NCBI GenBank assembly: GCA_051531975.1
Contig: JAOPTT010000001.1
Location: forward strand, 64,001-128,000
Length of the DNA stretch: 64,000 nucleotides
Reading direction: 5' to 3'
Source of the DNA: Spirochaetaceae bacterium
GTDB lineage: Bacteria; Spirochaetota; Spirochaetia; DSM-2461
In this document: positions 8,901 through 44,414 of the stretch, piece by piece
Layout: every line of letters starts with the position of its first letter
How positions within the stretch are numbered: position 1 is the stretch's first letter
Position numbers and translations under genes: made by a program
Notes under the pieces: generated by a model
What the model saw: only the letters and a program-made list of their open reading frames with translations
What the model was told of the DNA's origin: nothing
Database searches by the model: none

Positions 8901-8908
8901 TTTTTCAA
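2912..8908 (-). CDS. Hybrid histidine kinase: two family-3 PBP domains, Cache-like domain, two PAS, GAF, HisKA, HATPase, REC, HPt
   Basis: Two repeats of 'W.P.NF…PxGFSIDY'; FLANMSHEIRTPMN; YGGTGLGLSIS; MDLQMP; AHTVKG. TTG start with GGAG upstream. Confidence 0.92.
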   Translation of the reverse strand: MKKVLFFIVLFLYLLTNLVCEPINLTLEEENWLKEHTKIKVSNEMDWTPFNFNKNDIPQGFSIDYILLLADKIGFEIEFINGFSWNDFINQIQNRELDLILNIAYSEERSKFVNFTEPYFEFAPGLYTRKDYPIINSVEELYGKKFAVPKGFFFEEYFKDHPQVELIRVLDTKEALLAVSNGTADAMLDLMPVVNYFLDQLLITNLHAKGTLGVGEDDPIATHIGVRKDWDIFRRILDKGMKSISEFELSKIRTKWLGYKNNNSVSLSIEEKQFLREHSTIGVHNEQDWPPYNFYENGEPKGFSIDYMNLLSEILGIKVEYKSGPSWNTFLNMIKNKELDVMLNIVKTEDRQKYILFTEPYAKNPNVIVSTKEDPFDSIEELYDKTVAIPEGFFYQEILTKEYPQIKQLRLQNILECLKAVSVGKADAAFGESAVVYSIINRNMLTNLRFSGDSGIGDIELQNLNIGIRNDYPLLHSALKKAMDVVTPQQIQKIQQKWLLQSEANKSNSNENLIIEENSYSNIIVGIIITFILLTLSFWLILKKTKNRNIILNFSSNRLRLIILISLSLIISIVLIFGSILLTRNKNEIILETQSNLKISLENAENRLNVWISQKKDDLENLGRDQELIELVRQLLKEESSSESLLSSLALKNIRSFFENREIDFPNIGFFIINPDNISIGSKRNNNIGTSNIIGKVNPDLLKRAFEGEVLFVPPIESDVSLLEVIGTENEQNPDTMFFMGPVTQEDGKVISVYTIRIDPSDEFSDILQFSAIRESSDIYAINENGILMSKSRFEKDLFEIGLLKDSQTSALNIIVLDPGVNLQNKKGLLPDTLDTSYTNITSQLLDIKDKPEYYNEEHKHTNIVALTSKYRDYRGVFVYGAGLWSPDIGLGIISEIDESEALSSFYSIRSTVFIILAVTIFLLIGAILLLFILGDRTNRVLLSAKDDLEDVVAKRTKELSREITQKEKTEITLRKLNVAIEQGPAIVIITDKLGNIEYVNQKFLDLTGFSKEEAIGQNPSILNSGYHDKSFFKSMWDSILNGKDWHGEVLNKKKNSDLFWNSILISSIKNEHNELTHFISIQEDITKKKESEEELKKIELELRRKSERFSLATHAGGIAVWEYYPETHERIWDERTLEMFGDNPNGLDNKELWNQRIHPDDLITIDRVGKEALSGIKEYNVEFRIQSPNNDIRYCQSMANVQKDIKGNPIGFIGVTWDITESKTAEQKLTKALNQVNILYETSLTLGNTFDLEELLSTILKKLKQVIPYDSASIQELKDDGFEIIYAEGFSPTDNILGLRFPLYEGTQTQRIYAEKKPLFVHDIHELPEFDNLSKNSKTRSWLGIPLIYNNEVIGKLTLDKQEIGFYDEDNARMGGAFATQAGVAIKNVRLFEELHIAKEEAESATKAKGDFLANMSHEIRTPMNAIIGLNHLLTKTELNKKQTDYVDKVSHSATGLLGIINDILDFSKIEAGKMDIEKIDFEIESIFDNLLNLVSDKVRAKGLNLRIEKDKNIPLYVNGDPLRIGQILINFVSNALKFTDEGDISISCNLISMEDNVAELKFSVSDTGLGLSDDQQKKLFKAFTQADTSTSRKYGGTGLGLSISKRLAELMGGVVGVKGELGVGSTFYFTLKCAVVDESNIDKKKINVIPSELLNSIRGATILLAEDNKINQQVAVELLESEGFVIDIADDGKIACDMVQKKDYDLIFMDLQMPNMNGFEATERIRTELNKNDIPIIAMTADAMTGVEDKVKKAGMNDYVTKPINLDQLWQALSSWIKPGDRELPSGFKTREKSSENIEFPQIEGIDTSSGLLRLGNNQKLYKKLLRQFADEYSDVTEKITTLCGNNKIEEAIREAHTVKGISANLGANKLQKLMANIEIDINNGDDLSSNLLLAKDEINSLISAINKNLEIDNDSSDIILKEPINTGFLILKLREAVQHLNERKPKPAIDLLDSILLFELPEITGTKIIEVQKLLGRYKMKDASKIIELLISELE

Positions 8909-24652: not shown

Positions 24653-25309
24653 ATGGAAAGTTTCATTATTAATAATTATATAAATTTAATCTGGGACTAT
24701 CATCAGCTTTATAACAAACCTGAAAAAGCTGACTGTATTTTTACCCTAGGAAGTAATGATCAACGTATTGCAGAGTATGCTTCAAATCTTTATCTAGATG
24801 GTTTTGCTCCATATCTAATATTCTCTGGAGGAATTGCTCATAGTGGAGATCTGTTATCAACAGGTTGGGATAAAAGTGAAGCTGAAATATTTGCTGACGT
24901 AGCTATTAATATGGGAGTTCCAAAAGATAAAATAATCATAGAAAAGCAAGCAAAAAATACAGGAGAAAATGTTCTGTTTACAGAAAAGATTTTAAAAGAA
25001 AAAAACATTAAATTTGATAAAATTATCGCAGTTCAAAAACCGTATATGGAAAGAAGAACATACGCGACTATTAAAGTTCATTGGCCACATAAAAATGTAA
25101 TAGTAACTTCTCCTAATATAAGTCTCGAAGAGTACCCAACTTCCAATATTAAAAAAGGAGACGTAATTAATATTATGGTTGGGGATCTTCAAAGGATAAT
25201 GGATTATCCGGCTTTGGGTTATCAAATAAAGCAGGAAGTTCCGGATAACGTAAAACATGCTTATAAAAAACTAGTTGAATTTGGTTTTGATAAGCACCTA
25301 ATACATTAA
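24653..25309 (+). CDS. YdcF/DUF218-family protein
   Basis: [25 protein letters not shown] motifs. Confidence 0.88.
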
Positions 25310-27144
25310 ACTGTTTGAAACTCATTAACCTCGTCATTAATTTCTCTACTTACAACTTCAACTCGATCTGTTATCTCTTTTAATCCAGACATAGCATCTG
25401 TTATCTCTCTAAATCCAATATTTACTTCTGAAATTGAACATGTAACAGAGTTAGATATATCTGAAACATTTGATATTAAGGAATTTATCGACATTGCACT
25501 ACTGTTCATAGATTCTGATTTATCCTGAACTGTTGATGATATATTTTCCAATCTTTCCATGGTTTTTAATATTTGATCACCATCGATATTAAGTTTCGAA
25601 GTACTATGTGAAACTTTATTAAGTTCTTCAGAAATTACTTTTATTCTCTCATTTATTTTTAAAAATGCCTCTCTTGTATTTTGACCAGCTGATGAGGCAT
25701 TTTCAAATTTAGTAATTATATATTTCAAATTCGAACTAATATCCTTACTATTCTGCGTTGATGCAACAGCAAGTTTTCTTATTTCATCTGCAACTACTGC
25801 AAATCCCTTTCCCGCATCACCTGCGTGAGCGGCTTCAATTGCAGCATTCATAGATAATAAATTAGTCTGATCTGAAATATTCTGAATTATCTCAGTCATA
25901 CTGTTTATCTCATTTACTGATGAGTTTATATCATCAATTATATCGTTTGTCTCTGAAAGTTTTTCATCACCTTCTAAGACAGTACGTTCAAGTAATTTTA
26001 GAATATCCTTATTATGATTAGTCATTAAGGATATCTCAGAAATGGAGCTAATCATATTTGATATGGAGTCCCCGGACTCTTTAACCATTGTTATCTGTTT
26101 AAAAATGTACTCATTTAATTCACTTGAGAACTCAGAAATCTCTACTGAATCCTGTTTCGATTGATTTATATGGTTATCTAACATAGAAATTTTACTATCT
26201 ATGGAATTTATATTTGCTGATATTTCTACTGCCGCTGCTGAAGTTTCTGTTGTTGTAGCTACTAACTCTTCTTTAACTTCTTCGTTAATTCTAGAAGAAT
26301 TTTTTATTTTATTTAACGAGCTGCTTAACCATGATTGGAATGTACTCATTTTATCACTAAGTAATCCAATCTCATCACTGGATTTAACATGAATATTATG
26401 GATAAGATTACCTGTAGCCATCACTGATAGGCTACTCTCCAGTTTTTTTATAGATTTTGTAATTTTAGAAGCACTTGTTATAGAAACAATTACTGAAATA
26501 AGTAGTGTCGATAACATTATTCCCATAGTAATAAATAGTCCTATTCTTTTAAAATAGGCAGCATAATTATCAATAATAATATATTGATCATGAATAGCTC
26601 TTTCCGAGGATTCAAGAGTTAGGATTACAACTCCCAGTTGTTTTTTTATTGTATTATTTAACCCTGATAGCTCATTAAAATATGGTAATAATTTTGTTTT
26701 TGACCTGTTTATATCCTGGATTGCAAATGATGAATCTAAACTATCAATTGTATTAAATAAAGCGTTTATTGATGTATATAATTTATCTTCCGCTTTACTC
26801 TGAAGTAACTCTAGATCAACTATTGTATCTAAAGCAACTTTTACATCTAAACTAAGGTTAGGAAGTGATTTGAAATCTTTAACTCTAAAGATAGAAGTTT
26901 TTTTAAGGTTAACAATATCTTTTAGTTCCTTGGATTGTTTTAAAATAGGAGTTCTATCTGTTAGGAATTTAGTTAATTCGATTATTTCCATTTTCATTAA
27001 AGAGCTTATTGTTTCAAGTTCTTTTTTTTCGTTTTCAATTTTAGTTATTCTGAGTTGAAAACCAATATATGAACCCATTGATATGATCATAGCGGTTAAA
27101 ATTGAAAAAATTAGGGTCAGTAATTTTGCCTTAATTTTCATCAT
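25306..27144 (-). CDS. Methyl-accepting chemotaxis protein
   Basis: Two TM helices, HAMP (DEIG.L), signalling hairpin [34 protein letters not shown]. Confidence 0.95.
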
Positions 27145-27595
27145 TTACTCTTATTTTAAACACCAATTTTTTAACCATAGATTTTTGATTATATAATAGT
27201 GCTGGAGTATGCAACTCTCCTGGCATTACTAATACAAAGTAACCATTTTTCAGATGGAAATTATATCCTTCAGATAATTTAAAAAACTCAATATCATTAT
27301 CTTTGTTATATTCCTCTTTGATCTCCTGGTTATTAAAAGGTAAAACTCTAAATAGTTCATCACCTTCAACTAAGAGTTGTATATCAATATAGTTTTTATG
27401 GGATTCATATACGCAGTCGATACTATCTTTGGTTTCATACTCAAATAACATGACAAATACTTTATCACCATCAATCTCATATTTCCCAGGTTTTAATTTG
27501 TTAAAATCCATGTCTTTCATATAATTAAGTGCAATATCAAGGTTATTAGAAAGCCCTAAGTATTGATCAGTATTTTCTATCTTGTCATATATCAT
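27131..27595 (-). CDS. YhcH/YjgK/YiaL (NanQ-like) family protein
   Basis: GKYEIDG, ESH..YIDIQ..V.G.E, PGELH.P motifs; follows the nanA-like gene. Confidence 0.9.
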
Positions 27596-27655: not shown

Positions 27656-28582
27656 TTAAATAACGTCTAAAAAGTCTATTCCTGTTATGTTATATTCTTT
27701 TTTAAGAGCTCTAAACTCTTCTTTCATTACTTCTTCTTCCTGAAGTGTATAGTTCTTAAAAGGTCTTCTACAGTATCCAGCATCTACACCCATCCAAGCT
27801 AATGCACGTTTCATAGTTCCTACATAGTTTTTTTGAACAGCATGCATAATTATTGCATTGGCAAATTTTTGTTTCTCTTTTGCAGTTGGTAGATCGTTAT
27901 TATTCATAGCGTTATATATATCAATAAATACTTCTGGCATTAAGTTGTAAAATGAACCAATTAGACCATCTGCTCCAAATGCCATTCCTGACATTGACAT
28001 CTCATCACTACCTGAATAGATTAAAAAATCATCTCCAAGGTCCTTTTTTAATCTCATGATATCAAAGTGAGTTGAAGCCGTAAATTTCAGACCTTTAACA
28101 CCTTCAATCTCTGCAAATCTCTTAACCTGCTCATAACTTTGTAAACCAGCAAGCATTATGTTATATACGATCATTGGTAAAGATGTAGACTCTGTAATAT
28201 CTTTATAATAGTTAAATACATCATCTGCATTAAATCTCCAATAAAACGGAGGCACAGAGGAAATTGCATCTGCACCTTTCTCTTCAGCATGTTTAGCAAG
28301 ATCAATAGAAATTTTTGTTCCAATAGCACCTACGTGTACAATTATTGGAATTCTTCCTGCAGCCTGATCAATAACAACTTCAACAACAGTTTTTCTCTCT
28401 TCCGGAGTCATTAAAAAACCTTCACCAGTACTACCTGTTAGGTATAAACCATCAACTTTTTTACTAATTAAATGCTCAACAACAGCTCGCATTCTCTTTT
28501 CATCAAAGTTCTCGTTTTCATCAAACGTTGTAATTAACGCTGGGATAACACCTTTAATATCCTTAATCTCAAAATTAGCCAT
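27656..28582 (-). CDS. nanA: N-acetylneuraminate lyase-like aldolase (DHDPS/NAL family)
   Basis: GSTGE, IVYN, Schiff-base KFT, GSDEM and IGSFYN (NAL-type rather than DapA-type); yhcH neighbour. Start ATG 28582. Confidence 0.78.
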   Translation of the reverse strand: MANFEIKDIKGVIPALITTFDENENFDEKRMRAVVEHLISKKVDGLYLTGSTGEGFLMTPEERKTVVEVVIDQAAGRIPIIVHVGAIGTKISIDLAKHAEEKGADAISSVPPFYWRFNADDVFNYYKDITESTSLPMIVYNIMLAGLQSYEQVKRFAEIEGVKGLKFTASTHFDIMRLKKDLGDDFLIYSGSDEMSMSGMAFGADGLIGSFYNLMPEVFIDIYNAMNNNDLPTAKEKQKFANAIIMHAVQKNYVGTMKRALAWMGVDAGYCRRPFKNYTLQEEEVMKEEFRALKKEYNITGIDFLDVI

Positions 28583-28596
28583 ATATTCCTCTCTTC

Positions 28597-29598
28597 TTAT
28601 TTTATAAAATGACAAGATGCAAAATGTTCTATTCCATCTGTGCCATAATTTTTTAGTTTTGGTACTACTGTTTTGCAAATATCTTTGCATTCAGGACATC
28701 TAGGATGAAATGGGCAACCTGATGGTGGATTAACTGGACTTGGGACATCCCCTTCCAGAATTATTCTTTTAGTTTTTTTATTCAGGTCTGCTACTGGGAT
28801 TGCCGATAAAAGTGCTCTTGTATATGGGTGCAAAGTATTTTTATATAGCTCTTCACTCTCGGTTAATTCAACAATTTTACCAAGATACATAACTGCAACT
28901 CTGTCACTTATATACTCAACAACACTTAGGTCATGGGTAATAAACAGATAGGTTAAATTACGTTCATCCTTTAACTTTTTGAGTAGCTTAAGAACTTGAG
29001 CCTGAATTGATACATCTAAAGCACTTACTGCTTCATCGCAAATTATAACTTCAGGATTAATACTAAGTGCTCTAGCAATTCCAATTCTTTGTCTCTGACC
29101 ACCGGAAAATTCATGGGGATAACGGTCCATATATTCAGGTCTTAAGTTAACAGCTTCTAAAAGATCACCTATAATTTTTCTTCTCTCTTCTCTGGTTTTA
29201 ACACCATACTTTTTTAATGGATCAGATAGAGATCCAAAGACAGTAAACGCAGGATTCAGTGATGAATGAGGATCCTGAAATACTATTTGTAACTTCTTTC
29301 TATATGGATCCATCTCTTTATGGTTTAGAGTACGAAGGTTAACCTCTGTATCACTGTTTTTATAGATAATATCGCCACCAGTGGACTCAATTAATTGAAG
29401 AATAGATTTACCAAGTGTTGTTTTTCCACAACCACTCTCACCTACAATTCCTAATGTTTCACCTTTATATATATCAATATCAATACCATCTACAGCTTTG
29501 ACATGACCTGTAATTTTTTTGAATACACCTGTTCGGATCGGAAAATGGGTTTTCATACCTCGAAGTTTTAAAATAACCTCTCTCTTCTCTTTAGTCAT
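28597..29598 (-). CDS. Opp/Dpp-type ABC ATP-binding protein (OppF-like)
   Basis: GESGCGKT, FSGGQRQR, DEAVSALD, GCPFHPRC. Start ATG 29598. Confidence 0.95.
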   Translation of the reverse strand: MTKEKREVILKLRGMKTHFPIRTGVFKKITGHVKAVDGIDIDIYKGETLGIVGESGCGKTTLGKSILQLIESTGGDIIYKNSDTEVNLRTLNHKEMDPYRKKLQIVFQDPHSSLNPAFTVFGSLSDPLKKYGVKTREERRKIIGDLLEAVNLRPEYMDRYPHEFSGGQRQRIGIARALSINPEVIICDEAVSALDVSIQAQVLKLLKKLKDERNLTYLFITHDLSVVEYISDRVAVMYLGKIVELTESEELYKNTLHPYTRALLSAIPVADLNKKTKRIILEGDVPSPVNPPSGCPFHPRCPECKDICKTVVPKLKNYGTDGIEHFASCHFIK

Positions 29599-30595
29599 TT
29601 TTAGTTGCCTCCATATAATTCCAGCACATAACCTTGTGACTTTCTGAAATATCAACATTTTTAGGAATGTTAAAGCATGTTTCAGTCGCAAAATCGCATC
29701 TTGGACTAAACTGACAACCTTTTGGTCTATTTAACGGGTCAGGTGTAGAGCCTTTAATGGCTTCAAGTTCCTGATTTTTCCCTAGTCCTAATACAGGAAT
29801 TGATGTTAAAAGAGCTTTAGTATATGGGTGTGTAGGTCTATTAAGAATATCTTCTACAGTTCCACTCTCTACAATATTACCCATATACATAACTGCTACG
29901 TCGTCTGCTAACTCTGTAACAACACCCATGTCGTGGGTTATCAACATAATTGCGGTGTTATAGTCCTTCTTTAACTTCTCCATAAGCTCAAAAATTTGTG
30001 CCTGAATAGTGACATCCAAAGCAGTTGTAGGTTCATCGGCTATTAAAACCTGGGGATTACAAGACATTGCCATTGCGATCATAGCTCTCTGTCTCATTCC
30101 TCCTGAAAATTGGTGAGGATACTCTTTTGCCCTTAGTTCAGGAGAAGGTATTCCCATTGACTTAAGTAGTTCAACAGCTTTAAATCCTGCTTCTTTTTTT
30201 GATAATTCAGAATGATAGATAATATTTTCAGCTATCTGGTCTCCAACTTTAAATACTGGATTAAGTGCAGTCATAGGGTCTTGGAAAATCATTGCAATTT
30301 CCCCTCCGCGAATTGATCGCATCTTTGAACCATTTTGTTCCAATTCGTCAATTCTTAGAGCACCACCATCTCTATGGTATATGATCTCTCCCTCTTCAAT
30401 TCTAGAGAGTTTAGGTAGCAGCCCCATAATTGATGCAGCAGTAACACTTTTACCACATCCACTCTCACCAACTATGCAGAGAGTTTTTCCCTTTCTTACT
30501 TTAAAAGAGACTCCATTTAGAGCTTTATTACATCTTTTGTTAGTATAGAAGAATGTTTTTAAGTTATTAACTTCTATTATTGTATCGTTATTCAT
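29591..30595 (-). CDS. Opp/Dpp-type ABC ATP-binding protein (OppD-like)
   Basis: GESGCGKS, FSGGMRQR, DEPTTALD. Confidence 0.95.
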   Translation of the reverse strand: MNNDTIIEVNNLKTFFYTNKRCNKALNGVSFKVRKGKTLCIVGESGCGKSVTAASIMGLLPKLSRIEEGEIIYHRDGGALRIDELEQNGSKMRSIRGGEIAMIFQDPMTALNPVFKVGDQIAENIIYHSELSKKEAGFKAVELLKSMGIPSPELRAKEYPHQFSGGMRQRAMIAMAMSCNPQVLIADEPTTALDVTIQAQIFELMEKLKKDYNTAIMLITHDMGVVTELADDVAVMYMGNIVESGTVEDILNRPTHPYTKALLTSIPVLGLGKNQELEAIKGSTPDPLNRPKGCQFSPRCDFATETCFNIPKNVDISESHKVMCWNYMEATKND

Positions 30596-30605
30596 TAATA
30601 TCCCC

Positions 30606-31535
30606 CTATCCCTGTTGTGATGGATCTGTAGAATCTCTTAGTCCATCTCCAATAAAGTTAACACTTAGTACAAAAAGGGATATAACTATTCCTACTGGTA
30701 GCCATAACCACCAACTATTCTGAAGTATTCTTAATTCCTGTGCAGAGTTTAGGATATTACCCCAAGTTGCAATATTCATTGGAACACCTAGACCTAAAAA
30801 GCTTAGAGCAGCTTCCTGAAGAATAAACATAGCAGTACTAAGTGTTATATTTACCATAATTGGTCCTAAAGCATTAGGTAGTATATGTTTATAACATATT
30901 GTAAAAGTATTTAGACCAAATGCATTTAAAGCCTGTACATACTCCTCTTCTCTTAATGACAACATCTTAGCTCTAGACATCCTGTACATAGGAGCCCAAC
31001 CAGTAAGAACAAATATTACAATCAGATTCATTAAACTCTGACCTAATATTGAAACTAATAGAAGAACAAGTATTATTTGTGGAAATGACATAAATATTTC
31101 TGATAGTCTCAAAAATAGACCATCAATTAGCCCACCCTTATATCCTGCATAACAACCAATAGTTACACCTATTAATGCTGCTCCTAATGCTGATCCCAAA
31201 CCAACTAATATAGAAACACGACCACCATAAATTATTCTTGAATAAATATCTCGACCAACCCTATCGGTACCTAAAAAATGGTCAGCTGATGGAGGCCTAA
31301 GTGCACTTTTTAAATTAATCGCCAATGGATCATGTGTTGATATTAGCGGAGCAAATATTGTACATAACATTATTATTAAAAAGATTATTATTCCCGATAC
31401 TGCGAGTTTATTATTTAACATCTTTCTTAATTGTCGATTCATACTACTTTTTTTTAGTAGACCTGCTTCTTCCTGAGCTCTCAACTTATCGAAACTCTTA
31501 TGTAATTTTCTGTTTTTTTGCTTAAATATACTCAT
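30606..31535 (-). CDS. Opp/Dpp-type ABC permease (OppC-like)
   Basis: HFLGTD..GRD, HILPN, LSFLGLG, NFIGDGLRD. Confidence 0.95.
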   Translation of the reverse strand: MSIFKQKNRKLHKSFDKLRAQEEAGLLKKSSMNRQLRKMLNNKLAVSGIIIFLIIMLCTIFAPLISTHDPLAINLKSALRPPSADHFLGTDRVGRDIYSRIIYGGRVSILVGLGSALGAALIGVTIGCYAGYKGGLIDGLFLRLSEIFMSFPQIILVLLLVSILGQSLMNLIVIFVLTGWAPMYRMSRAKMLSLREEEYVQALNAFGLNTFTICYKHILPNALGPIMVNITLSTAMFILQEAALSFLGLGVPMNIATWGNILNSAQELRILQNSWWLWLPVGIVISLFVLSVNFIGDGLRDSTDPSQQG

Positions 31536-31543
31536 AAGGCCCC

Positions 31544-32503
31544 CTACTTTAATTTAACTCTTGGATCTAAAAGAGCTGTAAATAGATCTACTAAAAAACT
31601 TGCGAGAAGAACTGCAAATACAGAAAATAATGCAATCATCATTACTAATGGATAATTTTGACCTCTTACAGCAACAATAAATTCGTTACCTATTCCAGGC
31701 CACTGAAATATCTGTTCGATTACAACTGCTCCACCAATTAGTGTTGGTAGTCTAAATCCAACTAAAACTATTACAGGAGTCAATGCAACTCTAAAACCAT
31801 GAACAAGGTTTACTCTCCACGCTGGAAGACCTTTACTTCTGGCAGTTTTGATATATTCTTTATTTAATGAATCCAGCATACTGGATCTTGAATAACGCAT
31901 TACACCTGCTGTCAAAGTAGACGCTAGTACTAATGCTGGCATAACTAGATGTGGTAATCGGTCTAAAAAGGTATTGTAATGAGGCAATATTCGACCTCCT
32001 ACAGGTAACCATTCTAGGTTTAATGCAAATATAAGAATTGCGACAAGTCCAAAGAAAAACTGTGGTATAGATACACCTAACATACCTACAATAGTTAATG
32101 TATTATCTGCTATGGAACCTTTATTTATAGCACTTATACAACCTAGAATACTTCCAAATATGGTTGAAAGAATCAGAGATACAAAAGCTAACTCTAACGT
32201 TGCAGGTAGTCTATCAAAAACTATATTCTTAATTGGAACACCACTAGATATACTGTATCCAAAATCACCTTTAAGGATACCTTTTCCCCACTTAGCATAA
32301 CGTATTAAAAATGGATCATTTAAGCCAAGAGATTCTCTTAATGCATCAAGTTTTTCCGGTGATAACTCTGCAGCTGCTTCTGGATCTATCAAAAATGATA
32401 CTGCATCCCCAGGCATCAGGTCTAATCCTGTATAGATTAAGAAACTGATAATAATTAGCATAGGAATTAGAATTAAAATTCTTCTAATTGCATAGGATAA
32501 CAT
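31544..32503 (-). CDS. Opp/Dpp-type ABC permease (OppB-like)
   Basis: MPGD, GDFG.S, YIKTARSKGL, IFQWPGIG, LDPRV. Confidence 0.95.
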   Translation of the reverse strand: MLSYAIRRILILIPMLIIISFLIYTGLDLMPGDAVSFLIDPEAAAELSPEKLDALRESLGLNDPFLIRYAKWGKGILKGDFGYSISSGVPIKNIVFDRLPATLELAFVSLILSTIFGSILGCISAINKGSIADNTLTIVGMLGVSIPQFFFGLVAILIFALNLEWLPVGGRILPHYNTFLDRLPHLVMPALVLASTLTAGVMRYSRSSMLDSLNKEYIKTARSKGLPAWRVNLVHGFRVALTPVIVLVGFRLPTLIGGAVVIEQIFQWPGIGNEFIVAVRGQNYPLVMMIALFSVFAVLLASFLVDLFTALLDPRVKLK

Positions 32504-32533
32504 AACTTTAAACTCCTCTTAATTGGATATAAC

Positions 32534-32557
32534 CCCTGAAGTTTTTACACTTCAGGG
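32534..32557 (-). other. Stem-loop between the SBP and permease genes
   Basis: CCCTGAAGT-N6-ACTTCAGGG. Confidence 0.75.
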
Positions 32558-32578
32558 AACTTAATTACTAAAAACTGA

Positions 32579-34249
32579 TTAGTTCTTTGGGAATTTATTT
32601 ACGTAAAATAGTCTTGTATAAGGAATATCTACAGGAGTAACTCTCATGTTATCCATCTCTTCAAGTGCTATAACATCTGCAACACTTTTAGTAAAACCAT
32701 AACTTAATTTTCCAGCCATAGCATTTTTAACTACGTTTCCATCATTTTCACCACTTGGGTAGATAACGATTTTATCGATACTAGTTGAACCGCCATAATA
32801 ATTATCAGAAGGAACTAATACAATATAATCATTCATTTGAACTTCATCTATTTTATATGGACCATTTCCAATAGGAGACTGCCAGAAAGAACTCTGTTGG
32901 AACTGTAAAGGATCAACTTTTCCTAAATGTTTTTTTGGCATTGGCGCGAATTGTGTAAATGTTAATAACATATTTGGATCAAGAGTATCAAAAGTAAAAG
33001 TAACAGTATTACCTTTAATTACTATTCCAGAAATGTCACTTGCACTTCCATCTAAAAATGCTGTTGCACCTTTTAATGATTTAAAGGTTGTAGAAAATAC
33101 AGAGTGAATTGTAGGAATCTGTAGAGCATACTCTACACTCCATTTAATATCTTCTGGAGTAAATTCTGCACCATCATGCCACATAATATTATCATTTAAA
33201 GTGAATACAACTTCTTTACCATCAGATGAAACTTTATAATCTTTTGCTAACTGTCCATCTTTTGCCATAATAGCTCCATTTGCTACTATTAAACGGTCAA
33301 AAAGAACTTTGTTATACATTTTGTGTCCAGGGTTAAACCATGGGTGCTCAAAGAATTCTACAGGAGCTGTGTTTGTATATAATACTTGCTCTCCATTTGA
33401 ATCAGCTTTTACAGTCCAGTCTGAAATACCCCAGTCATAGTTATACTGTGCATTTCCATACTCACCACCATTTCTATTTACATCTTTACTTTCGTAGATA
33501 AATAGTTGTTGGTAATAAAGAGGAATTAGTGGAAGATTTTTATTTACATATCTTTGTAACTCATAAAATGCAGCTTTTTGTTTATCAATATCAGCTGTTG
33601 CTTTAGTTGCTGCAATTAATGAATCTAACTCTGCAATTCCAGGTGTATGGGAGTTACCAGGTCCACCTGTAGGTAATTTACCATAATACTCATGCATTGC
33701 AAGAGCAGCACTTCCGGCATAAGCCATATCCCACTTAACATATGATGGGCCATTTACAGGATCAGATGGCGCTGTCCATAGTTGATCACCAATGTCACCT
33801 TCAAGTTTTCTAAAGTCCATTTTAACACCAACAGCCTGAAGATATGCTTGAGTAGCAGTCATTATATCAACTGTTAATTGATCTCCATAATAGAAAACAA
33901 CATCTAATGTATAATTTTTATCCCATCCAGCTTCTTTTAATAGTTCTTTAGCTTTTTCAGGATTGTAACTATAAGAGTTTAAACCATCTGTTTTCCATGG
34001 TCCGTTTGGAACCATACTGTTTGCAACAATTGCTTTACCCTCAAGAAGGGTATCTTTTATTGTTTCCATATCAATTGCGTATGAAATTGCCTGACGAATA
34101 CGATAATCTGAAAGTGGGTTACTATTTTGACCTTCCATAACCTCTTTAACTTCTGCTACTGCTGCAGGCTCATTTTGACCACTTGCAAAAATACCCATAC
34201 CTAAAGTTAACAATAGGCAGGAAACTACTAACAATTTGAATTTACTCAT
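32579..34249 (-). CDS. Family-5 (cluster C) ABC solute-binding protein, circularly permuted
   Basis: All OppA-type motifs are present but the halves are swapped: RQAISYAID and YNPEKAKELLKEAG come first; LFDRL, WHDG.EFT.ED and GNGPYK come later. Confidence 0.9.
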   Translation of the reverse strand: MSKFKLLVVSCLLLTLGMGIFASGQNEPAAVAEVKEVMEGQNSNPLSDYRIRQAISYAIDMETIKDTLLEGKAIVANSMVPNGPWKTDGLNSYSYNPEKAKELLKEAGWDKNYTLDVVFYYGDQLTVDIMTATQAYLQAVGVKMDFRKLEGDIGDQLWTAPSDPVNGPSYVKWDMAYAGSAALAMHEYYGKLPTGGPGNSHTPGIAELDSLIAATKATADIDKQKAAFYELQRYVNKNLPLIPLYYQQLFIYESKDVNRNGGEYGNAQYNYDWGISDWTVKADSNGEQVLYTNTAPVEFFEHPWFNPGHKMYNKVLFDRLIVANGAIMAKDGQLAKDYKVSSDGKEVVFTLNDNIMWHDGAEFTPEDIKWSVEYALQIPTIHSVFSTTFKSLKGATAFLDGSASDISGIVIKGNTVTFTFDTLDPNMLLTFTQFAPMPKKHLGKVDPLQFQQSSFWQSPIGNGPYKIDEVQMNDYIVLVPSDNYYGGSTSIDKIVIYPSGENDGNVVKNAMAGKLSYGFTKSVADVIALEEMDNMRVTPVDIPYTRLFYVNKFPKN

Positions 34250-34280
34250 AACATCTCCTTAAATTTAACTGAAATCAAAA

Positions 34281-34348
34281 TGTATCCGAATGTATACACA
34301 ATGTTTTCTTGTCTGGCTTTATTATTACATACATTTGTATACAGTCAA
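34281..34348. promoter_or_regulatory. Divergent promoter with two TGTATACA palindromes, candidate GntR/FCD operators
   Basis: TGTATACA at 34291-34298 and 34336-34343, each with a degenerate partner 10 bp away. Minus strand TTGACT-N16-AATAAT, with the second palindrome overlapping the -35 end and spacer. Confidence 0.65.
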
Positions 34349-34430
34349 GTCATTTCTTGCCAAATCTTATATTTAAATATACAATAACCTTAAATACTTA
34401 ATAAAACAGACTAAATATGAAGGAAGATAT

Positions 34431-36113
34431 ATGGAAAGCAGAGAAACATCTGGAATGAGTTCTGGAGCTAGTCATCAATTAAGGGTGGATCAACTTAAAA
34501 AAATTGAAAACCGTCCAAATATTCTATTAATAATGACTGACCAACAGAGAGCAGATACAATAAATGCCAGTGGTTCAGAGTTTATGATAACTCCAAATAT
34601 GGATCGTTTGGCTATAGATGGAAGGTTATATAAAAATGGATATTCACCAAACCCTATATGTATGCCTGCAAGACATAATATGTTAACAGGATTAACTGCC
34701 AGATATCATGGATACCCTGATAATGCATGGGGATTTGGTATGCCAGATGGTCTACCAACATTTCCAGAAATTTTATCAGATAATGGATATGAGACTAGAA
34801 CCATTGGGAAAAACCACTTTTATCCTCCAAGAAGGCACAATGGCTATCTTAATATGGAATTAATGCAGGAAGTTCCGGCCTTTAGGGAGCAAGATGAGTA
34901 CTTATTATATTTAAGAGATAATGGATTAGGAAATATACAAAACATTCATGGGGTTAGGAATTTACTCTATATGGTTCCACAGCAGTCTCAAATTCCTGAA
35001 GAGCATCATGGAACAACATGGGTAGCAAATAGAACAATAGATTTTATTGAATCAAACAATGGACGACATCCCTGGTTATTAAAAATGGGTTGGATTGCCC
35101 CACACCCTCCTTTTGATGTACCAAAAGAATTCGCAGACCTATATAAAGATGTAAAGTTTCCAGAACCACTAGTTTCTGAAACCCAGTTAAGTCCTTTAGC
35201 TGAAGAGAATAAACTTCTTGGAGATCTACCATCAAAACAATACATAAGACGGATGAAAGAGTTATATTATGGTGCTATATCCCATGTAGATCATCATCTT
35301 GGTAGAGTTCTAGATAGTTTGGAAAAAACAGATCAGCTTGATAATACCTTAATAATTTTTACTAGTGATCACGGGGAGATGTTAGGGGATTATTCTACTT
35401 ATCAGAAATGGCTACCATATAATGCCTGTTCAAAAATTCCTTTTATAATTCGTTATCCTAAAAAAATTAAACCAGGTGTTATAACTGAAGAGTTTGCAGA
35501 TCTAAACGACATTTTCCCAACAATACTTGAAGCTGCAGGCCTGAAATATCCAGGTAAGCATGAACTCCCCGGTGAGAGTTTAATAACAGATGATCCTAAA
35601 AAGGATAGAAACCAGCAGTATGTGGAGTATTCTGACGGTAATAGAAGATGGATTAGTCTAACAAACCATGATTATAAATATAACTACTACTTTGGTGGAG
35701 GTAGAGAAGAACTTTTTGATCTTAAAAATGATCCTGGTGAGTGTAGGAACCTAATGGAGTTCAAATTAAATACACGGCAACTACAGGCGAAAGATAAACT
35801 TAGAAAAGAGTTAATTAAAACTGAGGACAGATGGGGATTGATTGGCTCTATAGAGAATGGGGACTTAGTTGTAAGAGATAAATTTATACCTACTCCTTAT
35901 AGAAATAAGGCATTTCCTCTTTTCCCAGACAAACTAACAAATGCCAATGAGATTCAGTGTATGAATACACATATGGATGAAGTTATAGCTGTAACAGCCA
36001 ATGAAGATGTTGTTCATTTACAAGATTTAGACTTAAAAGTGTGGCAGTTAAACGGTAACTACAGTGATGAAGATATAGATACATTACTTAAAAAAGAGAA
36101 GGATAAAAAATGA
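34431..36113 (+). CDS. Formylglycine-dependent (S1) sulfatase
   Basis: RPNILLIMTDQ, CMPAR, GKNH, PHPP, TSDHG. Confidence 0.93.
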   Translation: MESRETSGMSSGASHQLRVDQLKKIENRPNILLIMTDQQRADTINASGSEFMITPNMDRLAIDGRLYKNGYSPNPICMPARHNMLTGLTARYHGYPDNAWGFGMPDGLPTFPEILSDNGYETRTIGKNHFYPPRRHNGYLNMELMQEVPAFREQDEYLLYLRDNGLGNIQNIHGVRNLLYMVPQQSQIPEEHHGTTWVANRTIDFIESNNGRHPWLLKMGWIAPHPPFDVPKEFADLYKDVKFPEPLVSETQLSPLAEENKLLGDLPSKQYIRRMKELYYGAISHVDHHLGRVLDSLEKTDQLDNTLIIFTSDHGEMLGDYSTYQKWLPYNACSKIPFIIRYPKKIKPGVITEEFADLNDIFPTILEAAGLKYPGKHELPGESLITDDPKKDRNQQYVEYSDGNRRWISLTNHDYKYNYYFGGGREELFDLKNDPGECRNLMEFKLNTRQLQAKDKLRKELIKTEDRWGLIGSIENGDLVVRDKFIPTPYRNKAFPLFPDKLTNANEIQCMNTHMDEVIAVTANEDVVHLQDLDLKVWQLNGNYSDEDIDTLLKKEKDKK

Positions 36114-37177
36114 TAACATCTAAAACTAGAGTAATGGATACTCTTAACCACAAAGAAACTGATAGAACTCCCCTTATGTATCGGGATGTACCCGAAGTTA
36201 GACAGAGATTAAAAAAAGACCTAAATGTAACAACAGATGATGAGTTATATAAACTATTTGGAATAGATTTCCGATGGGTTGCTCCTGAATATATTGGTCC
36301 AGAATTAAACATATCAGAAACAGAGAAGATAGATCACTGGGGAATCGAGTGGCAATATACAAAATTTAGTGATAGTGCCGGATACTGGAATGAAAAATCA
36401 TTTCCTATGGAAAAAATAGATACAGTCATAGGTGCAGCTTCCTGGCCTATCCCGGATATTAAATCATGGAACTATTCAAACTTAAGCAGAGATTGTGATC
36501 TGTATAAAGACTATGCAATTATGACTGCGCCGGGTTTCAGCTCTCCAGGAATCCTACAATTCCCAATTCAATCTCTTCTTGGAACAGAGAAAAGCCTAAT
36601 GGATCTATATATAAATCCTGAATTTTACAAAGCTCTTATAAGCCGTGTATTAGAGTTTCAGATTCCCTTTATTGATAAGATGATGGAATCTGCAGACGGA
36701 AAGATAGATCTTTTTCGATTAGGTGATGACTTTGGAACACAGGAAGGCCTATTAATGGGATTAGACCAATGGAAAGAATTCTTTCAGCCAGCACTAAAAA
36801 AAATGGCTGATAAAGCTAAATGTTATGGGGCTAAATATTATCAACACTCCTGTGGAGCTATCCGGGAACTAATCCCATCATTTATCGAAACAGGTGTAGA
36901 TGTTATCGACCCGGTTCAGGTAAAAGCAAACGGAATGATTCCAAAGGAATTAAAAAAAGAATTTGGTAATAAAATATGTTTTTCAGGTGGTGTTGATGAG
37001 CAGGATCTCCTACCCCATGGAAGTGAAAAAGATGTTAGAGAAGCTGTTTGGAAGTTACTTGATGATATGAGTGGTAATGGAGGATTTATACTAGGGCCAA
37101 CCCACAATTTCCAGGATGATATTCCTACAAAAAATATTGTTGCCATGTATGAAGCAGTCCACAACTGGAAAGGATAA
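36110..37177 (+). CDS. URO-D/MtaA-CmuA superfamily protein of unknown function
   Basis: MxSKxRV N-terminus, DxWG, GDDFGTQ, HSCG, GGVD.Q..L, GGFILGPTH; ATGA overlap with the sulfatase. Confidence 0.85.
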   Translation: MITSKTRVMDTLNHKETDRTPLMYRDVPEVRQRLKKDLNVTTDDELYKLFGIDFRWVAPEYIGPELNISETEKIDHWGIEWQYTKFSDSAGYWNEKSFPMEKIDTVIGAASWPIPDIKSWNYSNLSRDCDLYKDYAIMTAPGFSSPGILQFPIQSLLGTEKSLMDLYINPEFYKALISRVLEFQIPFIDKMMESADGKIDLFRLGDDFGTQEGLLMGLDQWKEFFQPALKKMADKAKCYGAKYYQHSCGAIRELIPSFIETGVDVIDPVQVKANGMIPKELKKEFGNKICFSGGVDEQDLLPHGSEKDVREAVWKLLDDMSGNGGFILGPTHNFQDDIPTKNIVAMYEAVHNWKG

Positions 37178-37211: not shown

Positions 37212-38342
37212 TTACTTTATAGTTTTAAGCATCTTATTAAATTGTTCTAATGACATAGTTGGAGGTATAGAGTGATCAGTGTGACAAATCCAGCCTCCAT
37301 CTTTAAACATCTCTTTTCGTGTTGTTAATTCCTGCTGGAGTTGTTCACAATCCCCATCCAGAATATGAGCATCAATATTTCCATAAAATGCCAGTCTATT
37401 TTGATATTTATCTTTTAACTGCCTAATATCCAATCCTGCAGAGGCCTGTAGAGGATTCATAACCTTAACTCCACAATCGATAAAATCATCAAACATTATC
37501 TCAGCATTTCCACATGAGTGCATCCAGAAATCAATATCGTTTTCTTTAAGAAAAGTACCAAGTTCTTTAACCATATCTTTATATACAGATGCCCACATGG
37601 TTGGAGACATTAAAGGTCCGTTACTTCCACCTAAGTCATCAACCATAAAATATCCATCAGGTTTCATTCCTTCAGAAATAGACTTTTTTAAAACATCAAT
37701 TGTAAGATCCACATGAACTCTACCCATATCCCTCACCCATTCTGGTTCAAGGGCAACATCCATTAATAAGTTAGAGAAATCTCGATGTCTCCATGTAGCC
37801 TCCCATGGACCATAATTTTTGAATAGAATATACCTGCCATTGTTCTCCATAATATCAAACTTAATTTTTGCTTCTTTCCATGATGGATAATCATCAAAAT
37901 GTTCAAAATAGTTCTGATCATCAATTCTAGAAGATTCAGATGGATCTTCATTTAGTTTCCATCTGTGTTTTGTAGATTCCCAAGTCTCTATATCTTTAGT
38001 TTTAACAGATACGTAGTGAATTGAACCTGACTTCTTCCATGGTTTTTCTGCTGTATATCCATATCTATCCTCATAAATATAATAATCGTCTTTATGGGAT
38101 AATATTTTTTGTTCATACCTTGGAGAACAATCAAGATACATAACAGCGATATCAAAATCAAAATATTCATCAACGGCCTGGCTTTTATTATCATTTAATG
38201 ATGGAGGATATATAGTTATATTCTGTGGGAATCCCTGTTCCTTCCAAACCTCTAAAGTATCTGTCCAGAAATCCTCATGTACAGGTATTCTATCTGGTTT
38301 CTCCCAATTGATTGCCGCTTTTACTCTCTCTTTTGAAGTCAT
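37212..38342 (-). CDS. URO-D/MtaA-CmuA superfamily protein of unknown function
   Basis: MTSKERV…PDRIP, DDLG, HSCG, GNID, GGWICHTDHSIP. Confidence 0.85.
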   Translation of the reverse strand: MTSKERVKAAINWEKPDRIPVHEDFWTDTLEVWKEQGFPQNITIYPPSLNDNKSQAVDEYFDFDIAVMYLDCSPRYEQKILSHKDDYYIYEDRYGYTAEKPWKKSGSIHYVSVKTKDIETWESTKHRWKLNEDPSESSRIDDQNYFEHFDDYPSWKEAKIKFDIMENNGRYILFKNYGPWEATWRHRDFSNLLMDVALEPEWVRDMGRVHVDLTIDVLKKSISEGMKPDGYFMVDDLGGSNGPLMSPTMWASVYKDMVKELGTFLKENDIDFWMHSCGNAEIMFDDFIDCGVKVMNPLQASAGLDIRQLKDKYQNRLAFYGNIDAHILDGDCEQLQQELTTRKEMFKDGGWICHTDHSIPPTMSLEQFNKMLKTIK

Positions 38343-39304: not shown

Positions 39305-39366
39305 ACCTTCCCAATATAATAATTTTATTACTATAGTAAATAATACAGAGACAAGAGGTGGCAAAT

Positions 39367-40044
39367 ATGGCTAAAGAGAAAAAAGAGAAATCATCATATG
39401 AACTTTTAAAAGATTTAATTCTAAATTTCCATATTAAACCTAATGAGAGAATGACTGAAGTTTTTCTAGCTGAAAAAATGAATATGTCTCGAATCCCAGT
39501 CCGGGAGGCTATTCAACAACTTGTCCATGAGGGATTTATTGAACGTACCGGTAAAACTGGATATCAAATAAAAGAGTATAATGAACAGGATATTATTGAT
39601 TTATATAACTATAGAGAAGCTATGGATGGAATGTTAACTAGACTATTTACCCAGAGAGTTGATGAATCACAAATATACTTTCTTGGTATGAATGTTGAAT
39701 CAATGGGAAATAAACTTGAGGATTTTGACCATACTACGTTTTCAAAAATTGATCATGATTTTCATAGAATAATTGCCAGAGGTGCAAGAAACCGATACAT
39801 GGAGCACCAACATGAGATAATTCTTGAAAAAGTTTTGTACGTCGCTGATCTAGTTTTTAAAGTAGCAGAAGAGAAAGAAATAGAGTTATTAACTAAAGAT
39901 AGTTACCAAGAAACATATAAGCAGCACTGTGAAATATTTAAATACATAGAAGAGAAAAATCCTGATATGGCAGAAAAGACCGCTCGGGAGTCTGTTCAGA
40001 TAGGACTTAAAAAAGCACTGTTAGTCCTATCCAAACGTGGTTGA
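39367..40044 (+). CDS. GntR-family regulator with FCD domain (copy 1)
   Basis: SRIPVREA, D..FH..I…A.N, QH.EI. ATG 39367 after GAGG. Confidence 0.92.
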   Translation: MAKEKKEKSSYELLKDLILNFHIKPNERMTEVFLAEKMNMSRIPVREAIQQLVHEGFIERTGKTGYQIKEYNEQDIIDLYNYREAMDGMLTRLFTQRVDESQIYFLGMNVESMGNKLEDFDHTTFSKIDHDFHRIIARGARNRYMEHQHEIILEKVLYVADLVFKVAEEKEIELLTKDSYQETYKQHCEIFKYIEEKNPDMAEKTARESVQIGLKKALLVLSKRG

Positions 40045-42547: not shown

Positions 42548-43222
42548 ATGAACGGAGAAAAAAATAGAACATCATATGAATATCTCAAAGATTTGATTCT
42601 CGGGTTCCACATAAAACATGGGCAGAGGATAACTGAAGTATTTCTTTCAGAGAAAATGAACTTATCTAGAATTCCTGTAAGAGAAGCTATTCAGCAAATG
42701 GTATACGAAGGATTTATTGAACGTTCAGAAAAAAATGGATATCAGATTAAAGAGTATAACGAGCAGGATATAATAGACTTATATAACTATAGAGAAGCTA
42801 TGGATGGAATGTTAGTAAAATTGTTTACTGGGAGGGTTGATGAATCCCAACTCTACTTCCTAGAGATTAATGTGGAATCTATGTCTGAGATATTACAGGA
42901 TTTTGACAGAAAAGAGTTTTCAAAGATAGATTTAGAGTTTCATAGAATAATTGCAAGAGGTGCCCGGAACCAGTATATGGAGCATCAACATGAAATTATC
43001 TTAGAAAAAGTTTTATACGTTGCCGAGCTTATGTATAAGGTTGCAGAAGAGAAAAAGATCAACTTATTAGACATAAATAGTTATAAGAATACATACTTAC
43101 AACATAAAGCTATTCTGGAATCTATTAAAAAACGTGATCCTGAAAATGCCGAAAACTTTGCTCGAGAGTCTGTTAGAGAGGGGCTTAAAAAAAGCCTATT
43201 AATACTATCTAAACATCGTTAA
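42548..43222 (+). CDS. GntR-family regulator with FCD domain (copy 2)
   Basis: Close paralog of 39367-40044. Confidence 0.92.
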   Translation: MNGEKNRTSYEYLKDLILGFHIKHGQRITEVFLSEKMNLSRIPVREAIQQMVYEGFIERSEKNGYQIKEYNEQDIIDLYNYREAMDGMLVKLFTGRVDESQLYFLEINVESMSEILQDFDRKEFSKIDLEFHRIIARGARNQYMEHQHEIILEKVLYVAELMYKVAEEKKINLLDINSYKNTYLQHKAILESIKKRDPENAENFARESVREGLKKSLLILSKHR

Positions 43223-43244: not shown

Positions 43245-44414
43245 ATGGATACCAATACTATAAAAAAACTTAAAGAATTTTATAATAACGAACTACTTAA
43301 TAATGTAGTTCCATTTTGGCAAAATAATTCTGTAGACTGGGAATATGGCGGTTTTATGGATTTTCTAGATAGAGAGGGTAAAACACTATCAACTGATAAA
43401 GGTGGTTGGGTTCAAGGACGAGCAGTTTGGATATTTTCAAACCTATATAGGGATATAGAAAAGAGAGATGAATGGCTAAAAGTTGCAGAAAATGGTGTGA
43501 AGTTCATTAGAGAACATCTAATCAGAAAATCTGACGGAAGGGTTTACTTCGAAGTTACTAGAGAGGGTAAACCCCTGTTAATGAGACGTTACCTGTTTTC
43601 TGAACTATTTGCAGCTATGGGTTTAGCAGCATACTCTGAAATATCCGGGGACAGACAGGCTCTTGATGAAGCAAGAACTCTATACTCAACTATAAATAAT
43701 CTAATGGATAAAATGCCTTCAAAAATTGATGTAAATACAAGAAAGTTCAGAGGACATTCCATGACTATGATGTTAATAAACCTCTGTCAGGTTATGCGAG
43801 ATGCGGATATGGAAAGAGCATCAATTTATACAAAACAAATAGATATCCAGATAGATGAGCTTTTTAAATACTTGGTTAAACCTGAGCTAAAATGCCTTCT
43901 AGAAACCGTTGATGAAAATGGAGACCAAACTGAGGGTCCTGAAGGTCGATGTGTAAATCCGGGGCACGCTATTGAAACAGCATGGTTTATATTAGAGGAA
44001 GCAAAGTTACGTAACGATGATGAATTAATTAAGAAGACACTGCTAATTATAGACTGGTCTTTAGAGTTAGGTTGGGACAAAGAGTATGGAGGGATTTTTT
44101 CTTTTGTTGATATAGAAGGAAAACAACCAGCACAAGTTGAGTGGGATATGAAATACTGGTGGCCTCACTGCGAAACCATATATGCACTATTACTAGCCTA
44201 TGATCTGACTAAGGATAAAAAATACGAAGATTGGTTTAATAAAGTACATGATTATACCTGGGATAAATTTCCGGATAGAGAGCATGGTGAGTGGTTTGGA
44301 TATTTAAGACGGGATGGTTCTGTTCAAGTAGATCTGAAAGGAAATCACTTTAAAGGGCCTTTTCATATACCAAGGTTTTTAACAAAAGTTTCAACTTTAT
44401 TAGACAGTATGTAA
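43245..44414 (+). CDS. N-acylglucosamine 2-epimerase (AGE family, Bacteroides NanE-type)
   Basis: K..W.QGR, PGHAIE.AW, K.WWPH.E, GEWFGYL.RDG, KGPFHIPR. Confidence 0.88.
   Translation: MDTNTIKKLKEFYNNELLNNVVPFWQNNSVDWEYGGFMDFLDREGKTLSTDKGGWVQGRAVWIFSNLYRDIEKRDEWLKVAENGVKFIREHLIRKSDGRVYFEVTREGKPLLMRRYLFSELFAAMGLAAYSEISGDRQALDEARTLYSTINNLMDKMPSKIDVNTRKFRGHSMTMMLINLCQVMRDADMERASIYTKQIDIQIDELFKYLVKPELKCLLETVDENGDQTEGPEGRCVNPGHAIETAWFILEEAKLRNDDELIKKTLLIIDWSLELGWDKEYGGIFSFVDIEGKQPAQVEWDMKYWWPHCETIYALLLAYDLTKDKKYEDWFNKVHDYTWDKFPDREHGEWFGYLRRDGSVQVDLKGNHFKGPFHIPRFLTKVSTLLDSM

Follow-up and report, generated by a model that had tools for sequence, protein, structure and literature searches.

Our analysis revealed a natural circular permutation in a solute-binding protein (SBP) encoded on a 64,000-nucleotide stretch of the genome of a Spirochaetaceae bacterium (assembly GCA_051531975.1, contig JAOPTT010000001.1, positions 64,001 to 128,000 of the forward strand), referred to in the following as the window. 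An open reading frame (ORF) at 32579..34249 on the minus strand encodes a protein of 556 amino acids (aa) without internal stops (P0001). Sequence comparison, Pfam matches, an AlphaFold model and structural alignment identify it as a family-5 (cluster C) SBP that has undergone natural circular permutation. The overall best explanation is probably that this protein is the SBP of an Opp-type importer, with a cluster-C fold that starts mid-chain and a sialic acid as ligand. An initial annotation, made from the sequence, had claimed a family-5 permutation within a single intact, full-length ORF. Both points were borne out, the former by the reversed order of two Pfam stretches, by the match to DppA and by the structural alignment of both halves.

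Residues 42-281 correspond to the canonical C-terminal half and residues 280-551 to the canonical N-terminal half, in sequence as well as in structure. Profile PF00496 gave two partial matches in reversed order, as had been predicted, with profile positions 5-204 and 209-328 at the 3′ and 5′ ends of the gene, respectively, at a score of 210 bits versus a curated cut-off of 32.4. The two other family-5 genes of the same genome matched this profile in one piece. In a search of solved-structure sequences, query residues 43-117 corresponded to residues 301-376 of E. coli DppA and query residues 278-496 to DppA residues 20-244. The motifs on which the initial annotation had been based were each found at the place given there, namely PLSDYRIRQAISYAID (aa 45-60), YNPEKAKELLKEAGW (aa 95-109), LPLIPLYYQ (aa 239-247), LFDRL (aa 316-320), WHDG (aa 357-360) and PIGNGPYK (aa 459-466). 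TRLFYVN (aa 545-551) is indeed near the C-terminus but is not the exact end of the chain, as five further residues lead to the terminus at aa 556.

The AlphaFold model of the permuted SBP (96 homologs) had a mean predicted local distance difference test score (pLDDT) of 91 and a predicted template modelling score of 0.85. The new junction (aa 281-290) reached a pLDDT of 96, and values below 50 were found at aa 18-38. The two halves of the model aligned to cluster-C structures separately and in swapped order. With VIA-align, model residues 42-281 were placed on AapF (7kz8) 276-504 with Z 21.6 and residues 40-281 on 1uqw 252-489, while residues 280-546 were placed on NikZ (4oet) 1-242 with Z 21.9 and residues 277-545 on OppA (1ola) 1-272. 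Across these comparisons both halves of the predicted model aligned at Z 19-22 and jointly covered the three-domain fold of approximately 500 residues. Foldseek, when run with the permuted model against solved structures, aligned 228-298 columns with a TM-score to the query of at most 0.38, compared with 526-568 columns and TM-scores of 0.61-0.74 for a model of an unpermuted sibling that served as control. None of the Foldseek matches listed spans the permuted model end to end, and a solved permutant was thus not among them.

On the minus strand of the window the gene begins with a putative signal peptide and low-confidence leader (aa 1-41, 34127..34249), which is now attached to the canonical C-terminal half and in which a simple pattern found no lipobox. 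The canonical C-terminal half comes first (aa 42-280, 33410..34126; aligned to 7kz8 and 1uqw), followed by a new linker between the old C- and N-termini (aa 281-287, 33389..33409), recognised by its pLDDT and constant spacing, and by the canonical N-terminal half (aa 288-556, 32582..33388; aligned to 4oet and 1ola), which ends just past the first hinge strand. The initial annotation had joined the old termini at aa 270-295; this location was right, and the interval can be narrowed to about K281-E287, which lies between the last strand of the old order (W278-V280) and its first strand (V289-T295). The linker spacing was 12 residues in all 105 pattern-matched permuted sequences of the main group, and a shorter linker was found in the divergent P0125/P0128 subgroup of permuted proteins.

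The proposed cut point between an "...FN" strand and a "PF.D.RVRQA" motif was likewise confirmed. Permuted chains begin just ahead of a PL-D-RVRQA motif and end five residues past the Asn of the hinge strand in 96 of 132 matched sequences (four to nine residues in all). In unpermuted siblings the distance from the hinge-strand Arg to this motif is 18 residues (114 of 115 matched sequences), and more distant normal-order relatives carry a long variable loop at the cut site, often with a D/N-G turn, that is longer than in DppA. The model of the permuted SBP contains strands at 241-254 and 544-550, and residue 545 maps to OppA residue 272, which we take to lie just beyond the first hinge crossing. 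With these assumed domain borders we infer that both hinge strands survive the permutation. Residues N293, F299, K314, K521, T545, Q268 and D503 are conserved in both chain orders and rare in outgroups, and R546, D123 and Q124 are conserved in the family and also common to outgroups. By analogy with the structures of OppA and DppA, these residues would presumably be placed in the pocket.

The permuted order is widespread. A homolog search returned 1084 proteins among 7998 scored, and the 120 listed ones that were tested for chain order were all permuted (121 of 121 sequences including the query). Among GTDB species genomes we obtained 408 pattern matches, 363 of them relatives, from which 80 loci were kept, and all 80, from at least six phyla, showed the permuted order. 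According to record titles these loci belong to Pseudomonadota (39), Bacillota (15), Spirochaetota (14) and Myxococcota (4), with one each in Moduliflexota, Fidelibacterota, Thermotogota and Methanobacteriota and four without phylum. In a second study, one contig (run X2, record 6) carries the whole gene in one piece, with 240 letters differing over about 2.8 kb. Run X1 likewise contains the stretch uninterrupted, but it may be the source of this DNA and does not count as independent. Because the order is the same in all listed homologs and in all 80 genome loci, it is not a misassembly. The notion of an assembly artefact or broken gene, against which the intact second-study contig and the lack of internal stops also argue, has next to no probability and is counted as refuted. 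Among named homologs the best one, with 72% identity, comes from Spirochaeta isovalerica. The gene was found in 7 of 60 relatives of this genome and in none of three from the same genus, and this patchy occurrence suggests transfer and loss.

Two further observations were made on these loci. L080 is labelled as an archaeon yet nearly identical to alphaproteobacterial single-cell loci, which is probably a binning error. In thirteen Alphaproteobacteria with AG- isolate codes (L057, L068-L079), the genes after the permuted operon are nanA and nanE, and 12 of the 13 also have nanK.

Our searches also revealed a closely related family of normal chain order. An exhaustive search with 150 listed representatives comprised 12 permuted sequences, 112 in normal order and 26 with one half only. 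One protein of normal order, P0123, shares 52% identity with one half of the permuted SBP and 51% with the other, a level also seen for several permuted proteins, and its homologs were in normal order in 119 of 119 cases and derive, by source names, from Hungatella, Anaerotruncus and other gut Clostridia; P0342 (Anaerotruncus) and P0415 (Hungatella) are further named siblings. Of 166 sibling metagenome loci 80 were kept, again all in normal order. The siblings from gut Clostridia share about 45-58% identity per half with the permuted family as well as family-specific residues, similar permeases and nan-linked loci, and they differ in chain order and in being mostly lipoproteins: a lipobox pattern, which is crude and confounded by taxon, was matched by 9 of 119 permuted proteins versus 100 of 119 unpermuted siblings. 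Permeases and ATPases of both groups are about equally near to those of the window (medians 62-74%), with median identities for permuted and unpermuted loci of 68 and 67% for OppB and of 69 and 62% for OppC. This comparable similarity of the membrane parts implies that the rewiring needed no obvious change in permease or ATPase. A search of 401 genomes of one order, carried out without a positive control, gave no unpermuted sibling at E 1e-100. P0134, P0136, P0145 and P0152, in which part of a sibling protein is joined to unrelated sequence, look like chimeric assemblies and were left out of the trees.

In trees built on reordered halves, the permuted sequences and their near normal-order relatives formed one clade (100/100) apart from the normal-order outgroups, and since the latter fall outside this clade, the phylogeny indicates that the normal chain order is ancestral. 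A single permutation event would be the simplest reading. The main tree was calculated from 32 of 103 dereplicated sequences. It requires three changes for the permuted set, which was monophyletic in none of 200 bootstrap trees, and in it normal-order P0127 groups with the permuted P0125 and P0128 (94/89). Together with the shorter linker of the P0125/P0128 group, this would point to more than one flip of the order, in which either the same loop was permuted twice or the gut clade or P0127 reverted to normal. One permuted clade was, however, not rejected by the approximately unbiased test (p 0.094), and after removal of the long rows P0127 and P0147 the permuted sequences formed one weak clade (27/62). 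A tree based on five genes from 31 loci (dropped were L046, L032 and a distant outgroup) likewise contained a single permuted clade (65/62) next to a gut clade (100/100). A mixture model on 23 of the 31 loci kept this split and placed the root between the two groups without support, which again leaves room for repeated flips, but the loop of the gut clade resembles the outgroup loop, as expected if it was retained. On balance we consider repeated flips rather unlikely.

Two explanations of how and why the permutation arose were tried and rejected. A double-length intermediate (duplication, then trimming) was sought among proteins of 974-2780 aa, which gave one unrelated fusion among the 7998 scored candidates, in itself weak evidence, and among the loci, where only L160 had two strong matches to one half and these proved to be adjacent pieces of one gene. 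Tethering, which has been proposed as the cause of permutation in TpMglB-2, is unsupported, as the permuted forms are mostly not lipoproteins by the crude lipobox pattern.

The operon of the window has the order SBP, oppB, oppC, oppD, oppF, nanA-like and yhcH-like, all on the minus strand. A stem-loop between the SBP gene and oppB (32533..32558) forms in the window and, at the equivalent position, in all nine loci that were folded, and we infer a role in mRNA stabilisation. It is followed by an OppB-type permease (31544..32503; PF00528, PF19300), an OppC-type permease of 309 aa without ATPase fusion (30606..31535; PF00528, PF12911), an OppD-type ATPase (29591..30595) and an OppF-type ATPase (28597..29691, likely start near 29598), both ATPases with PF00005 and PF08352. 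Next comes a NanA-like N-acetylneuraminate lyase (27656..28690, likely start 28582), recognised by PDB matches and model NF003164; no other NanA-like gene was detected in the genome. Its best PDB matches are NanA with 182 bits versus 121 for DapA, NanA or putative NanA account for the first 33 PDB sequences, and its GSTGE, KFT, GxDE and GS motifs, which we take to have catalytic and substrate-related roles, align with those of characterised NanA. The last gene encodes a YhcH/NanQ-family protein (27131..27595), a candidate sialic-acid anomerase that passed TIGR00022 and matched a YhcH in the PDB; YhcH has been described as the anomerase that supplies NanA (PMC10017367). An AGE-family N-acylglucosamine 2-epimerase (43245..44414, plus strand; PF07221) is encoded 9 kb from the operon, and an AGE gene adjoins the operon in L002, L003, L007, L008 and L043. 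The genome also encodes a BNR_2 sialidase-like gene.

The link to sialic-acid genes recurs in other loci. For these counts only loci of at least 14 kb were considered (63 permuted and 29 normal, or 23 and 4 groups at 75% identity), and matches to nanA were accepted from 140 bits, a threshold lowered from the first value of 200 after weaker matches appeared, most of which keep NanA-type motifs. Of the 63 permuted loci 54 contained a nanA-like gene, as did 15 of the 29 normal ones (18 of 23 and all four groups), so that the sugar-acid context proposed by the initial annotation holds. At least one of six nan-type genes was detected in 55 of 63 permuted and 24 of 29 normal loci, and nanA-like together with nanE or AGE in 33 of 63 permuted loci (11 of 23 groups). 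Matches to oppB, oppC and oppD were found in all 63 long permuted loci. In the one outgroup operon inspected (L161), reading by eye revealed no recognisable nan gene. Three out of three sample NanE genes pass the NCBIfam cut-off, and of the sample NanA genes one passes (291 vs 281) and one is just below (278). From this genomic context the ligand is probably N-acetylneuraminic acid (Neu5Ac) or a close form, and the system would function in sialic-acid uptake.

Several results weigh against this assignment. At the first threshold of 200 bits nanA would be counted in 41 of 63 permuted and 5 of 29 normal loci, and none of the six nan-type genes occurs in 8 of the 63 long permuted loci (4 of 23 groups). 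In the window, the NanA-like protein is a near miss for NF003164 (267.7 bits, cut-off 281; the dapA model gave 167 vs 206), the YhcH-like protein scores 105 bits with NF040884 (cut-off 160) and the AGE protein 380 bits with NF052547 (cut-off 600). NanE (PF04131) was not found in this genome, which is 98% complete; for this reason an AGE route, which is listed for Bacteroides (PMC10017367), is assumed, and the absence of a NanE match fits such a route. Additional enzymes are encoded in many long permuted loci, namely a class-III aminotransferase (27 of 63), a flavin adenine dinucleotide (FAD) oxidoreductase (14 of 63), PhyH (11 of 63) and a sulfatase (6 of 63), which implies that the real ligand may be a different nonulosonic acid.

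In that case the permutation would be real and the ligand another nonulosonic or keto-deoxy sugar acid, for example legionaminic acid, pseudaminic acid, ketodeoxynononic acid (KDN) or a sulfated or methylated sialic acid, differing between subgroups. The sulfatase and URO-D-like genes by the window operon and the aminotransferase, oxidoreductase, PhyH, esterase and aldolase genes that recur across loci are in line with this, as are NanA-like genes of several subfamilies, some of them under the cut-off, and the loci L017 and L028, which have aminotransferase and PhyH genes and no match to nanE, nanK or AGE. On the other hand, many loci encode nanA, nanE and nanK, a route specific for N-acetylmannosamine (ManNAc), and the catalytic and substrate motifs of the window NanA align with characterised NanA. 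We regard this alternative as unlikely; it overlaps with the assignment to Neu5Ac, which allows for modified forms.

A still smaller probability is given to the reading that the protein is a binder of peptides, nickel or another ordinary family-5 ligand with nan genes as mere neighbours. It would agree with the close solved relatives, which all bind peptides, nickel complexes or opines, with the oligo_HPY domain in the ATPases and with peptidase genes near some unpermuted loci. The nan link, however, holds in different phyla, for permuted and normal-order loci alike and with various arrangements of the genes, a divergent nanA among them. Moreover, none of the NCBIfam equivalogs for peptides or nickel (Opp4A, DppA, NikA, GsiB, SapA) came near its cut-off, the best reaching 170 of 650 bits, although the permutation itself depresses such scores. 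R383 of DppA binds the peptide carboxylate (PMC12136057). At the corresponding position the family has a Tyr/Asp loop (YYxDQ), and the Arg is not kept.

Among the additional enzymes, the class-III aminotransferase (e.g. L068:18027-19346) occurs mostly in marine loci, and in L012, L016, L017 and L028 it is accompanied by PhyH, SDR and aldo-keto reductase genes. The FAD oxidoreductase (L047:16492-18165, L105:13863-15509), which resembles only the NadB/Sdh family, is encoded in 14 of the 63 long permuted loci and in 27 of the 29 long unpermuted ones, frequently as a neighbour of nanA, and is a candidate for a new step in sialic-acid breakdown. A link to NanOx was dropped, since the tested Gfo/Idh/MocA protein (L049) was equally near to RgNanOx and to other members (62 vs 63 bits). 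GGTATA repeats of the NanR type were not enriched upstream of loci with a NanR-like gene (one match in 19 upstream regions).

With canonical cluster-C proteins (DppA 1DPP, OppA 1OLA, C. jejuni NikZ 4OET, Listeria CtaP 5ISU) the permuted SBP shares fold, motifs and OppBCDF partners, whereas its halves are swapped, identities in structural alignments are 16-25% and the carboxylate-binding Arg of DppA is missing. The initial annotation had named SatA (ST3/SatABCD, H. ducreyi 5Z99) as precedent. As a cluster-C SBP in a nan cluster, probably with the same kind of ligand, SatA remains a functional precedent, but the searches do not favour it as the relative. It is in normal order, scored 40 bits with the permuted query and 65 bits with a profile of the unpermuted sister family (rank 33 among solved sequences, best 108), and it was absent from the Foldseek matches listed for the unpermuted sibling model. 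SatA binds Neu5Ac by a His-Ser pair and an Arg (PMC10017367, PMC11364026). In ST3, permease and ATPase are fused in SatC (Severi et al. 2021, PMC8461474, Table 1), in contrast to the separate OppC, OppD and OppF of the permuted operon. The main text of the same study gives Actinobacteria and Pasteurellaceae as the range of ST3, unlike the permuted family with its occurrence in Spirochaetota, Bacillota and marine Proteobacteria. By search ranks the permuted family is no closer to SatA than to peptide and nickel binders, and since it also lacks the ST3 gene layout, it may be of separate origin. Severi et al. described eight families and a single origin of cluster-C sialic-acid binders, based on a search seeded with known transporters.

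Permutations of SBPs from other clusters have been published. TpMglB-2 ("cluster Bc"; Brautigam et al. 2016, PMC4990184) from spirochaetes and Gram-positives is a natural permutant that still binds and closes. It differs in belonging to cluster B, in a fourth hinge crossing added by the permutation and in its mostly tethered homologs, compared with the 9 of 119 lipobox matches found here. The glycine-betaine binders OpuAC and ProX are related by a natural permutation and bind the same ligand (Lo and Lyu 2008, CPSARST, PMC2395249), yet they represent a different cluster and a pair of less than 24% identity, versus about 50% between our permuted and unpermuted forms. In the literature searched, which did not include subscription journals, database notes and some supplements, we found no paper on a permuted cluster-C protein and no description of this nan-linked transporter family. 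The main text of the CIRPIN 2026 survey (PMC13552848) contains none of six binding-protein terms, and the ESM Atlas returned generic SBP_bac_5 clusters only. What is new here thus appears to be the permutation of a cluster-C protein.

We propose that the three-domain Venus-flytrap fold of cluster C is retained in a chain that begins in its middle. In an ancestor of normal order, the long surface loop past the first hinge strand would have become the new ends, while a short turn would have come to connect the old termini, which are neighbours in the fold, and the signal peptide would have ended up on the other lobe. Because both hinge strands seem to be kept, closing and docking on the unchanged OppBC-type permeases should still work. 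Neu5Ac or a modified form would be imported by OppBCDF and opened by the YhcH-like protein, whereupon NanA would split it into pyruvate and ManNAc. In this genome the AGE epimerase would convert the latter to N-acetylglucosamine, and in others ManNAc would be processed by NanK/NanE. The permutation was probably near-neutral and not the cause of specificity, since a normal-order sister family appears to do the same job.

Upstream of the operon we detected a promoter-like site (TTGACT-16-AATAAT; 34320..34350, minus strand) by a pattern search that gave 11 sites versus 10 expected by chance. It overlaps the palindrome TGTATACA. TGTATAC(A) palindromes lie at 34280-34350 over this site, and the same motif is found upstream in L001, L002 and L003. 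GntR/FCD-type genes are located at 39358-40044 and, similar to it, at 42548-43222, and such a gene adjoins or is near the operon in L001, L003 and L036. The palindromes and a GntR/FCD-type protein are probably operator and regulator. A divergently transcribed sulfatase (34431..36113, plus strand; PF00884) with orthologs in L001 and L056 possibly belongs to the same regulon. Beside it are two URO-D-like proteins (36110-37177, plus; 37212-38342, minus), possibly for demethylation of a modified sugar, a family that is also found by the operon in L003 and L010. At the other end, the yhcH-like gene overlaps at its end with a gene for a methyl-accepting chemotaxis protein (25306-27144, minus), which may be transcribed together with the operon and would then tie chemotaxis to its substrate. 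Between 9067 and 63414 the window is rich in glycan-use genes, with six sulfatases, two GH88, three SBP_bac_1 and several large AraC regulators, and at 2912-8908 (minus) it encodes a hybrid sensor kinase of 1998 aa with two SBP_bac_3 domains together with PAS, GAF, receiver and Hpt domains.

There is about an even chance that these loci represent an undescribed family of sialic-acid (nonulosonate) ABC importers, additional to the eight described by Severi et al. 2021 (PMC8461474) and with a second origin of this specificity in cluster C. The family would be distributed among bacteria of marine plankton, sediment and gut, with permuted and normal-order members that share about 50% identity. If so, they would provide a natural matched pair for testing effects of permutation on binding and transport as well as a marker for marine sialic-acid use. 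Natural permutants are usually too diverged from their normal-order kin to isolate the effect of rewiring, whereas here the identity of about 50%, the similar permeases and the same gene context would allow a direct comparison of stability, binding, closing and transport. The cut site also shows where a cluster-C protein has a loop able to accommodate new termini, a finding of use in sensor design. The permuted SBP implies no new chemistry. Confirmation of the ligand would mean an additional route of sialic-acid uptake in marine Alphaproteobacteria, spirochaetes and gut Clostridia, one that searches seeded with known transporters would overlook.

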